A DNA stretch of 64,000 nt from Eledone cirrhosa (lineage: Eukaryota), in the NCBI GenBank assembly GCA_964016885.1, contig OZ024750.1:30194001-30258000 (forward strand), written 5' to 3'. Under the pieces are notes generated by a model. The model saw only the letters and a list, made by a program, of their open reading frames with translations. It was not told where the DNA came from and made no database searches. A program made the translations under genes and the position numbers. Below are positions 608-56,110 of this stretch, piece after piece. The first letter of the stretch is position 1. Each line of letters begins with the position of its first letter.

Positions 608-1294
608 TATGATATTAAATAAATGGAAACTATATTTATAAAACCATATTTATTTCGTTATATATATTTCACTTTTTCATTTTCTCTTTTTTTTTTTTTT
701 TTCTCTCTATATAACGGCTATTTTCTCTCTTAACTACATACATCTCTCTTTACATTAATACTAGAGCTAAATAAATAAATAAATAAATAAATAAATGTAT
801 CAACCGATACTCAACTTCCTAGTTTCTCTATCTATCTCTATCTATCTCTTTCTTTATTCCTCTCTCTATATATATTTCTCTCTGTTTCTTTACATGAAGT
901 TCTTCTCTTTATCTATCTTTCTATATCTCTCTATTTAGTCACATGCATTTCTTCTTTTTCTTCGTTTCTCTTTCTTTCTTTCTTTCTCTCTTTCTTTTTA
1001 CAACTGTCCACAATATTTTTTACTGCCAAATCAACCTCCCAAATGCAAGGTGATTGAAAGGTATGTCGTATCTATTTATTTATAAGACTGTTTATATTGT
1101 ATTTTGTCTGAAGAAGGCATAACATATTGTTAATATGATATCCCTGAAATATATATAACGAAATAAATATGGTTTTATAAATATAGTTTCCATTTATTTA
1201 ATATCATAAATATACTCCAAATACTTGTTGAGTGCTTTTATATCAGTTATAAATATTTACTCGTTGTTAACCCAACAATTTAAATATAACTTTC
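608..1294 (+). mobile_element. Penelope-like pLTR remnant, family A, with inverted partial copy
   Basis: 608-671 is the exact reverse complement of 1145-1208. The direct copy carries a hammerhead motif and ends near TA/TG microsatellite. Confidence 0.65.
1100..1165 (+). ncRNA. Minimal type I hammerhead ribozyme (family A)
   Basis: Stem I TATTTTGT/ACGAAATA; CTGAAGA 1108-1114; stem II AGG..CATATT-GTT-AATATG..CCT; GAAA 1146-1149; palindromic TATATA stem III; predicted cleavage after AUA (1157). Confidence 0.75.
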
Positions 1295-4930: not shown

Positions 4931-5170
4931 GCCATTCCTTTCCTAAAGCACACATACACACACACATCATAAAGGGCAAGAGATTGAGTGAGAAAGGGAC
5001 AGAATAAGGGACAATATTAGTACAGAGGGACAGAATAAGGTAACAGGAGATATAACTCTATGGTCTATATATATATATATATACGTAGGTCCTGGGTTGA
5101 GTCGGGGATAACCACAGTAAGTAAGGTACTCAATACATGGCAGAGTAAAATTTTTTTATTTTATAGAAGG

Positions 5171-5221
5171 AGCTTCTACAGGACTAGTACTGTTTCATTC
5201 AGATGAAATCTTCAGGAAGCT
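5171..5221 (-). ncRNA. Type I hammerhead ribozyme (family B), minus-strand copy
   Basis: Exact reverse complement of 5253-5303. Confidence 0.85.
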
Positions 5222-5252
5222 CGGTGTCATATTAAGTTCTAATATGACACCC

Positions 5253-5303
5253 AGCTTCCTGAAGATTTCATCTGAATGAAACAGTACTAGTCCTGTAGAA
5301 GCT
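5253..5303 (+). ncRNA. Type I hammerhead ribozyme (family B)
   Basis: AGCTTC-CTGAAGA-TTTC(ATCT)GAAT-GAAA-CAG(TACTAGTC)CTG-TA-GAAGCT; GUA cleavage triplet 5295-5297. Confidence 0.85.
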
Positions 5304-5361
5304 CCTTCTATAAAATAAATATATATATATAGGGTAACAGAAGATAAAACTCTATGGTCAA

Positions 5362-10820: not shown

Positions 10821-11119
10821 TGATCACTTTCGTGTTATTCCAATATTTGGCAAAACTTTTCAATTGGAAAAAAAAAAGAATTTATTTTATTTTTATTTTA
10901 TTTAGTGTTTCTTTTTTTGTTTTCTTATCTAAAAAATATAAAGCTTTTGTTGATTTCCAAAGGAATAGCAAACAGCACGTAACTATCACTGTCTCTCTTC
11001 CATTTCTCTCACCCCTTTTCATTGTTTACTCTATTATACTCTCTCTCCCTTTCTTGCTCTCTCTTTCGTTTATATATCTTTCTCTCACTTCTACACACAC
11101 ACACACATATATATATATA

Positions 11120-11560
11120 CAATGATATTAAATAAATGGAAACTCTATTTATAAAACCATATTTATTCTATTATATATATTTTAAGGGTACCAAAAATGT
11201 TGGTACGCTATCATCAGATAAAATACAAAATGTTTTATAAATATTTGACATGACCAAGGATAATATACCTTAACGGTTCAAGTTATCCCTGGAAACTTGA
11301 GGGATAACTTGAGCCGTTAAGGTATATTATCCTTGGTCATGTCAAATATTTATAAAACATTTTGTATTTTATCTGATGATAGCGTACCAACATTTTTGGT
11401 ACCCTTAAAATATATATAATAGAATAAATATGGTTTTATAAATATAGTTTCCATTTATTTAATATCATTGAATACTTACTCCAGAAATCTGTCGAGTGCT
11501 CTGAATCAGTTATAAAACATCTACATTTGTTGGATTTCCAACAAATTAAATATCTCTTCT
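11120..11560 (+). mobile_element. Fold-back Penelope-like pLTR module, family A variant
   Basis: 171-bp inverted arms 11120-11290 / 11300-11470 (2 mismatches seen); extension 11471-11560; homologous to 1090-1294; flanked by (TA)n. Confidence 0.75.
11365..11426 (+). ncRNA. Hammerhead-like motif with GAAA changed to AAAA (mirror copy on minus strand)
   Basis: Stem I TATTTTAT/ATAGAATA; CTGATGA 11373-11379; stem II GTACCA/TGGTAC; AAAA 11407-11410; TATATA-TA. Confidence 0.6.
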
Positions 11561-29939: not shown

Positions 29940-30068
29940 GATGATTTCTAAAGAATGAAACAGTTCTGGTCCTGTAGAATCTCATCTATATTAAAACTTT
30001 TATACTCTGCAATGTATTGAGTACCTTACTTACTGTGGTTACCTCCGATTCAACCCGGAATAACGTAC
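29940..30068 (+). mobile_element. Family B pLTR, truncated inside the hammerhead core
   Basis: GATGA-TTTCTAAAGAAT-GAAA-CAG..CTG-TA-GAATCTC plus extension; near-identical to the reverse complement of 44544-44669. Confidence 0.8.
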
Positions 30069-30194: not shown

Positions 30195-30246
30195 TTTAAT
30201 TGCCCTGATGAGTCCTAAATAGGACGAAACATTGTTGGCTAATAAA
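30195..30246 (+). ncRNA. Minimal type I hammerhead ribozyme (family D)
   Basis: GCC-CTGATGA(30205-30211)-GTCCT(AAAT)AGGAC-GAAA-C(ATT)G-TT-GGC; canonical G-C stem II closure; GUU triplet; followed by AATAAA and (TA)n. Confidence 0.8.
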
Positions 30247-44543: not shown

Positions 44544-44772
44544 CGTTATTCCGGGTTGAATCGGAGGTAACCACACTAAGTAAGGTACTCAATACATTGC
44601 AGAGTATAAAAGTTTTAATATAGATGAGATTCTACAGGACTAGAACTGTTTCATTCTTTAGAAATCATCAGGAATCATGAGGTTCCTGATGAGAATCATG
44701 AGGTTCCTGAATCAGAGATTCCTGATGATTTCTAAAGAATGAAACAGTTCTAGTCCTGTAGAATCTCATCTA
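44544..44772 (-). mobile_element. Fold-back pLTR module, family B
   Basis: Arms about 44621-44676 / 44717-44772; extension 44544-44620; TA and GA microsatellite flanks. Confidence 0.78.
44715..44767 (+). ncRNA. Type I hammerhead ribozyme (family B); mirror copy 44628-44676 on minus strand
   Basis: GAGATTC-CTGATGA-TTTC(TAAA)GAAT-GAAA-CAG(TTCTAGTC)CTG-TA-GAATCTC. Confidence 0.87.
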
Positions 44773-55931: not shown

Positions 55932-56110
55932 TTTAATATAGAAATGGCTTCTACAGGACTAGAACTGTTTCATTCAAAGGAAATCATCAGGAAACCCCAA
56001 TTCCTTTGAATGAAAGTTCTAGTCCTGTAGAAGCCATTTCTATGTTAAATATTTATACTCTGCTATGTATTGAGTACCTTACTTACTGTGGTTACCCCCG
56101 ATTGAACTCG
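55932..56110 (+). mobile_element. Fold-back pLTR module, family B
   Basis: Inverted arm 55932-55996, direct truncated arm from 56001, extension to 56110; TA/CA flanks. Confidence 0.75.
55946..55996 (-). ncRNA. Type I hammerhead ribozyme (family B)
   Basis: Minus strand GGTTTC-CTGATGA-TTTC(CTTT)GAAT-GAAA-CAG(TTCTAGTC)CTG-TA-GAAGCC. Confidence 0.85.

Follow-up and report, generated by a model that had tools for sequence, protein, structure and literature searches.

Hammerhead modules of the window

Four non-coding modules lie in the window, the 64-kb stretch of Eledone cirrhosa DNA analysed here (GenBank assembly GCA_964016885.1, contig OZ024750.1), at 5084, 29940, 44544 and 55932, and all of them are present as a preliminary description of this DNA had them. 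They fall into three subfamilies, A, B and C, which differ in the loop of stem II (TAAA, ATCT and CTTT, respectively), a loop as free to vary as that description claimed, and they consist of a long arm alone or of a long and a short arm in opposite orientation:

5084..5240, minus strand: long arm of subfamily B (loop ATCT), with about 24 nt of native leader, a hammerhead at 5221-5171, a predicted cut after 5177 (minus strand) and a tail up to (TA)n
5241..5320, plus strand: short arm of subfamily B, with a hammerhead at 5253-5303 and a predicted cut after 5297
29940..30068, plus strand: solo long arm of subfamily A (loop TAAA), with its 5' end inside the core and without C3-U4
44544..44676, minus strand: long arm of subfamily A, with a hammerhead at 44676-44628 (5-bp stem I) and a tail
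44677..44715, no strand assigned: junction filler of short re-copied stem I and core pieces, the last letter being a non-native G at 44715
44716..44772, plus strand: short arm of subfamily A, with a hammerhead at 44716-44766 and a predicted cut after 44760
55932..55996, minus strand: short arm of subfamily C (loop CTTT), with a hammerhead at 55996-55946
56001..56100, plus strand: long arm of subfamily C, with its 5' end in stem II, a 2-nt deletion in stem III and a tail up to (CA)n

The motif is a type I hammerhead, with CUGANGA, GAAA and UH core elements in a three-stem junction. A descriptor scan of both strands identified five complete motifs, with cores at 5259 (+), 5215 (-), 44722 (+), 44671 (-) and 55990 (-), whereas 50 block shuffles, which served as a control, gave on average 0.08 loci and never more than 1. 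These five hammerheads are distributed over three of the four modules, which bears out the claim of a complete ribozyme in three copies, with the qualification that the 29940 copy begins inside its core. At 5084 and 44544 each strand carries a full ribozyme, as proposed, and the GUA triplet of the expected cut site was located at 44758-44760. The modules are flanked by (TA)n as claimed, except that the 55932 copy ends in (CA)n. The search with hammerhead models that had been suggested recovered the motifs by structural descriptor, and Rfam at E ≤ 1 returned no match to them. No RT or EN match was found in the 64 kb by tblastn (E 0.01), in agreement with the statement that the modules have no coding partner within the window, and the output of a repeat search of the window was dominated by satellites.

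Details of the stems had to be revised. Three pairs (TTC/GAA) form stem II, which had been described as 4 bp, and a U·U adjoins the core. Among the stem I sequences that were said to vary while staying paired, GAGATTC includes the outer G at 44715, which is a junction letter; untruncated copies carry C at this position, and stem I of this copy is therefore 6 bp long. GGTTTC of the 55932 module is a junction or decayed form of the native GGCTTTC. Two of the three stems thus contain junction or decayed letters, and what stands of the claim is that two pairs covary among a few related subfamilies. Across 12 untruncated copies, 97.4% of the cells are paired, the four unpaired cells lie in stem I, stems II and III are invariant, and two-sided changes occur at two stem I pairs (A-U/G-C and A-U/C-G). 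Both the covariation score and the paired cells of these 12 rows exceed those of shuffles (0/500); the number of covarying pairs is no higher than in shuffles (401/500). As the rows, which span subfamilies, are mutually related and were selected with an eye to the core, covariation supports selection without proving it. Among 52 young copies chosen regardless of the ribozyme, mismatches in the core (3/624) were not clearly less frequent than in the flanks (24/2548). At two loci elsewhere (L077, 1478-1536, minus strand; L255, 671-729, plus strand), stem I has a C·A mismatch that is fixed in the subfamily concerned.

Minimum free energy (MFE) folding of the module sequences did not yield the hammerhead. 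The active fold, at -4.2 kcal/mol, lies 3.4 kcal/mol above the MFE structure (-7.6 kcal/mol), and folding z-scores range from -2.2 to +1.4 and are mostly non-significant. A stem III dimer via the CTAG loop is predicted at -12.8 kcal/mol. In the 5084 module, the short arm stops at (TA)n about 20 nt past its predicted cut and the stretch 5156-5320 folds as a single hairpin of -135 kcal/mol, in which the ribozyme of a fold-back transcript is predicted to be hidden. During insertion the ribozyme probably remains largely silent, and its cutting would depend mainly on dimer formation via the CTAG loop or on the help of a protein.

The window holds other hammerheads as well. One at 30199-30243 (plus strand) lies 130 bases after the 29940 copy, passes the Rfam Hammerhead_1 cut-off with 35.1 bits and is probably the pseudo-LTR (pLTR) of another family at the same (TA)n site. 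The descriptor scan also found a minimal hammerhead of another family at 1100-1165 (plus strand; core at 1108), and a 175-bp inverted repeat at 11116-11474, from a related family, apparently has the same short-arm/long-arm build.

An autonomous Hydra-clade element elsewhere in the genome

Sequence further upstream is common to three of 30 loci resembling the 29940 copy, and the whole element was recovered by searching with this shared stretch and then with adjacent RT DNA. It consists of a pLTR, the tail, a short leader, a 714-aa open reading frame (ORF), 1.3-2.3 kb of largely (TA/TG)n sequence and again a pLTR, so that the same pLTR and hammerhead recur 1.3-2.3 kb downstream of the ORF. Within the pLTR, a CCAAT-like box is followed by a C-rich tract, TATAAATA and the hammerhead. 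The hammerhead of the modules is found 130 bases upstream of an intact 714-aa frame encoding RT and GIY-YIG. Copies joined to such ORFs, for which the preliminary description had advised looking, thus exist: locus L102 comprises an inverted partial pLTR, a pLTR with the module hammerhead and an unbroken 714-aa ORF at 597-2741, and the frame is unbroken in at least four of the 30 loci retrieved by RT DNA. Subfamily B has an ORF of its own, 73% identical over 371 aa and located 1.86 kb upstream of a B hammerhead. For subfamily C, no intact ORF was found in L257 or L258, and its sole tie to an ORF is an N-terminal fragment between subfamily C arms at L181.

The protein carries the features by which the Hydra clade of C-terminal EN+ Penelope-like elements (PLEs), exemplified by Hydra-1_Obim and Penelope-n_HM, is defined in Craig et al. 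2021 (PMC8557442): a single ORF with RT and C-terminal GIY-YIG domains, the motifs RW[KR], DKT, CxCx5C, CxxC and CxH, and (TA)n targets. The RT motif YRDD is at position 347 and YIG at 603. RWR is present at 38 (K to R; RW[KR] occurs in 112 of the 120 homologs listed) and GxK[FY] is absent; DKT at 116 takes the place of DKG; the linker CNCLNKEAC at 567 matches CxCx5C, without Cx2-5CxxC; and no CxxC precedes YIG, CDLC and CMH following at 667 and 695. There is no fingers insertion, the spacing between RT3 and RT4 being 63 aa, about that of Hydra-1_Obim as read by eye. A hammerhead near the 3' end and insertion into (TA)n complete the picture. Pfam did not name the ORF: the full 714-aa protein gave no GIY-YIG match, and the C-terminal part gave a weak one (E 0.001) below the cut-off. 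A protein search yielded 1081 relatives at E ≤ 1e-30, the best 53% identical, none of which is named among the 120 listed; in a cluster look-up of five relatives, only the jellyfish members of one cluster bore a name. The unit of about 4.3 kb (L136) is longer than the <3 kb given as general for the clade, which PMC8557442 treats as a tendency and not as a criterion, and this length is due to the microsatellite-rich 3' region.

On this sequence evidence, the modules are very probably 5'-truncated pLTR ends, comprising hammerhead and tail, of a young Hydra-clade group of PLEs. The feature is real and represents a new family of the known Hydra clade. The earlier reading as a ribozyme-bearing PLE was right and can be refined to this clade, with autonomous partners elsewhere in the genome. 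The alternative of a non-autonomous derivative, also raised there, is not needed, as the same ribozyme precedes an intact RT and GIY-YIG frame elsewhere and the modules are pLTR ends truncated short of the TATA box.

Several observations concern the surroundings of the element. The (TA/TG)n mosaic of its 3' region, 1.3-2.3 kb long and with conserved landmarks, is seen at L056 (5720-7560) and L053 (3972-5233); with such a region, each long insertion spreads microsatellite and thereby the element's own target. The microsatellite 3' region of family A harbours another Hydra family, whose hammerhead is of the U3-A8 type with a long stem II (L069, 1403-8325; L061, 5552-7876). At L069 the composite appears as a single inverted unit that terminates in family A arms, and at L061 the ORFs of both families form a chimera. 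More than ten further hammerhead families were encountered by chance in the flanks of retrieved loci, often at the same (TA)n tracts.

Ends of the copies and a proposed mechanism

The first 100 core matches listed, a sample unbiased for ends, include 64 A/B cores. Twenty-three of these run on through the TATA box. Among the 41 that do not, 39 have their end within the 5' strand of stem I, 0-7 nt ahead of CTGA, and the remaining two end 12 and 45 nt before CTGA. From the first T of the TATA box to stem I the distance is 30 nt in A and 29 nt in B, and the spacer keeps its length (about 29-33 nt) as its sequence diverges between subfamilies. A distance of about 30 nt from a TATA box is usual for a start site. 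These data suggest a capped RNA with its 5' end at stem I, some 30 nt downstream of the TATA box. Among other PLEs, rotifer pLTRs have been noted to carry TATA and Inr motifs (PMC3846280), and the promoter of D. virilis Penelope has been described as TATA-less (PMC2377424).

The stem I boundary could instead be a splice acceptor or a site of RT stalling. A pyrimidine tract and CAG occur at the boundary in A and B, and the intron of D. virilis Penelope ends at the 5' end of helix I (PMC4209133). Subfamily C, however, lacks that AG (GTCGG) and still has its boundary at stem I, non-inverted short copies share no upstream exon, and the TATA-stem I spacing is held despite divergence of the spacer. 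We regard this explanation as decidedly unlikely.

A start at stem I may also have left its mark in the letter preceding it. In subfamily C, position -1 is G in 47 of 69 non-native contexts; the native letter is C, and T, the letter expected from fold-back, occurs in three. The other arm could be the source of 33 of these 47 extra Gs. A hand tally of the 26 contexts that the other arm does not explain gave 14 G, 6 A, 4 C and 2 T. An RT that copies the cap leaves an extra G, and RTs also add untemplated letters. We infer that the extra G is a copied cap.

A genomic footprint of ribozyme cutting, i.e., copies starting at the cut site, was not found among the first 100 3'-product matches listed, of which at most four start within 4 nt of this site. 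As almost no copies start there, the template appears to have been uncut RNA. The 3' ends are of two kinds, with 31 located 13-23 nt past the cut site and 26 in the tail; elsewhere, one lies 7 nt past the cut site and none at 24-67 nt. In subfamily A, a weak hairpin follows each of the two end sites (-4.0 and -5.1 kcal/mol). In subfamily B, the far site has one of -4.8 kcal/mol, and the near-site hairpin competes with another fold. Folding z-scores of the junction RNA are not significant, and twin hairpins behind the two end sites are, as folding models, only partly supported in A and B.

The exact 26-letter core has 14,841 + 12,144 = 26,985 matches in the 3.0-Gb genome, as compared with none for the reversed pattern used as a control; the A-type sequence downstream of the cut site has 12,764 and a tail motif common to the copies 15,048. 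That short copies, by the core and tail-motif counts, vastly outnumber ORF copies might indicate that the unit of about 135 nt propagates itself as a non-autonomous, retrozyme- or SINE-like element through ribozyme-cut, circularised RNA. Contig depth is in keeping with this, as in one sequencing run of unknown kind contigs cover the module about 1000 times as deeply as the ORF (four such contig runs were compared, and the holders listed include no RNA run), and animal retrozymes were derived from pLTRs according to a preprint (bioRxiv 10.64898/2026.07.22.740005). Against such propagation, the copies are mostly dispersed and tandem only in rare local arrays, they do not start at the cut site, and the short ones have neither a TATA box nor the hairpin that follows the far end, which makes it very improbable. 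One such array, at L170 (1600-1900), consists of four head-to-tail subfamily C hammerhead units of about 88 bp and is possibly a nascent retrozyme-like satellite.

Fold-backs are built asymmetrically. Of 37 examined, 32 combine a long with a short arm and five two short arms, and none combines two long arms; the long-plus-short build holds in 54 of 56 fold-backs of a larger A/B set, which is partly biased, as its subfamily B loci favour an intact long arm. In the unbiased loci, the short arm holds at least 3 nt more native 5' sequence in seven cases and the long arm in six (L007, L023, L025, L030, L080, L090 and L243 were treated as uninformative because of point mutations or deletions). That either arm may reach further 5' argues for two cDNAs and against the short arm being a simple copy-back. 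The loop II variant is common to both arms in 51 of 54 fold-backs, suggesting that they derive from one RNA or one source locus.

The same element might produce fold-backs by self-priming, if the cDNA (or an antisense template) folded back at stem I and the endonuclease trimmed the second arm. Such priming has been argued for PLEs, with an antisense template proposed (PMC3846280), and the tail has been ascribed to EN resolution (PMC8557442). The loop II variant, nearly always shared, speaks for it, common junctions with 3-5-nt loops suit hairpin priming, and most single junction strings fit it equally well. However, native letters absent from the long arm are present in the short arm of the seven unbiased fold-backs mentioned above, in several fold-backs filler separates two complete stem I ends, and folding back through stem I would leave arms starting at the cut site, which is seen in at most 4 of the 100 matches listed. 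Self-priming is, in our judgement, unlikely.

We consider it likely that the modules are truncated Hydra-clade pLTR ends generated by nicking of both strands of (TA)n and by copying of uncut RNA, from two fixed starts, up to stem I; for the mechanistic part by itself (two start sites, both strands, uncut RNA copied to its 5' end), the balance tips slightly in favour. The pLTR promoter would start the RNA at stem I, the enzyme would nick both strands of the (TA)n target, and one cDNA would be primed per strand, from a near and a far start site. Both cDNAs would extend 60-135 nt to the 5' end of the uncut RNA, and the two arms would be separate cDNAs joined head to head by microhomology. Long insertions would require read-through RNA from an upstream unit. 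It is tempting to go further, with somewhat less than even confidence, and to view the fold-back as a frozen transposition intermediate, in which a dimeric enzyme would hold one capped, uncut RNA with one subunit at each hairpin-marked site. Priming would proceed from opposite (TA)n strands and both cDNAs would extend as far as the cap, where the ribozyme begins with its first base, leaving pairs of 'strong-stop' cDNAs by the tens of thousands; the ribozyme at +1 would then be a decapping switch and not a replication step.

Relation to known elements

As a ribozyme discovery, the family is ordinary, and its novelty was initially overrated. Hammerheads within the pLTRs of PLEs, as well as truncated solo copies and close opposite-strand pairs, had been reported before (PMC4209133), and File S2 of PMC8557442 lists hammerheads of the Hydra clade that have the same ctgatgaT...Tgaa core. 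Literature searches found no description of the Eledone family or of the long-plus-short rule; Repbase and Dfam may hold prior annotation. The added value lies in a mechanistic, testable system. To account for the head-to-head inversions and one-sided tail of PLEs, previous proposals invoke EN resolution, self-priming or a pair of internal RT starts, and the Eledone family offers intact ORFs, copies that are 97-99% identical and thousands of junctions. These junctions predict the exact positions of the RNA start and of two RT starts, together with a rule of one site per strand, and the family suggests a ribozyme that occupies the extreme 5' terminus of the RNA and is bypassed when the element inserts.

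Like members of the Hydra clade, the element has a type I hammerhead near its 3' end, and the U·U of its core recurs in the File S2 entries for Penelope_HM and Ajap (PMC8557442). It differs from the clade, as far as the data listed there go, in its clear pLTRs ('no pLTR' is listed for Obim), a tail of about 70 nt instead of the typical 30-40 nt, and a loop III of 8 nt instead of 1-3 nt. Hydra-1_Obim has a different hammerhead, and its protein differs by eye in the supplementary alignment of that paper; because of this different ribozyme, the Eledone element is a family separate from Hydra-1_Obim.

In the metazoan PLE hammerheads described by Cervera and de la Pena 2014 (PMC4209133), the type I motif likewise lies in pLTRs, loop III is palindromic, and one additional base is left unpaired between A9 and stem II; solo truncated copies again number in the thousands, and there are pairs on opposite strands close to each other. 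Low activity and dependence on dimers were reported for these hammerheads. In contrast, stem II in Eledone has 3 bp and lacks G10.1-C11.1, and its 4-bp stem III is predicted to permit folding as a monomer. Fixed 5' ends at stem I and the long-plus-short rule are Eledone features without counterpart in the portion of PMC4209133 considered here.

A biochemical parallel to the proposed mechanism comes from Poseidon_Ac, an anole PLE studied by Frangieh et al. 2024 (PMC11167929), in which two internal RT starts bound the tail, both strands are cut and extended, a dimer is predicted, and uncut RNA is the dominant template. Two start sites bounding the tail and AT-rich targets are shared features, read in Eledone from DNA alone, and cutting and extension of both strands on an uncut RNA template would be shared as well, judging from the insertions. 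Poseidon_Ac, however, belongs to a different clade and its starts lie inside the ORF. In vitro it used the same sites for both strands, whereas Eledone insertions point to one site per arm; shared start sites on both strands would not by themselves predict the asymmetry of a long and a short arm.

Finally, non-LTR retrozymes (PMC7229834; bioRxiv 10.64898/2026.07.22.740005) resemble the modules in being short, non-coding units with a pLTR-related type I hammerhead. Retrozymes are defined in these sources as tandem arrays of hammerhead monomers without a linked ORF, an arrangement that in Eledone was seen in one local array (L170), whereas the copies described here occur dispersed and inverted and have a link to an autonomous ORF.
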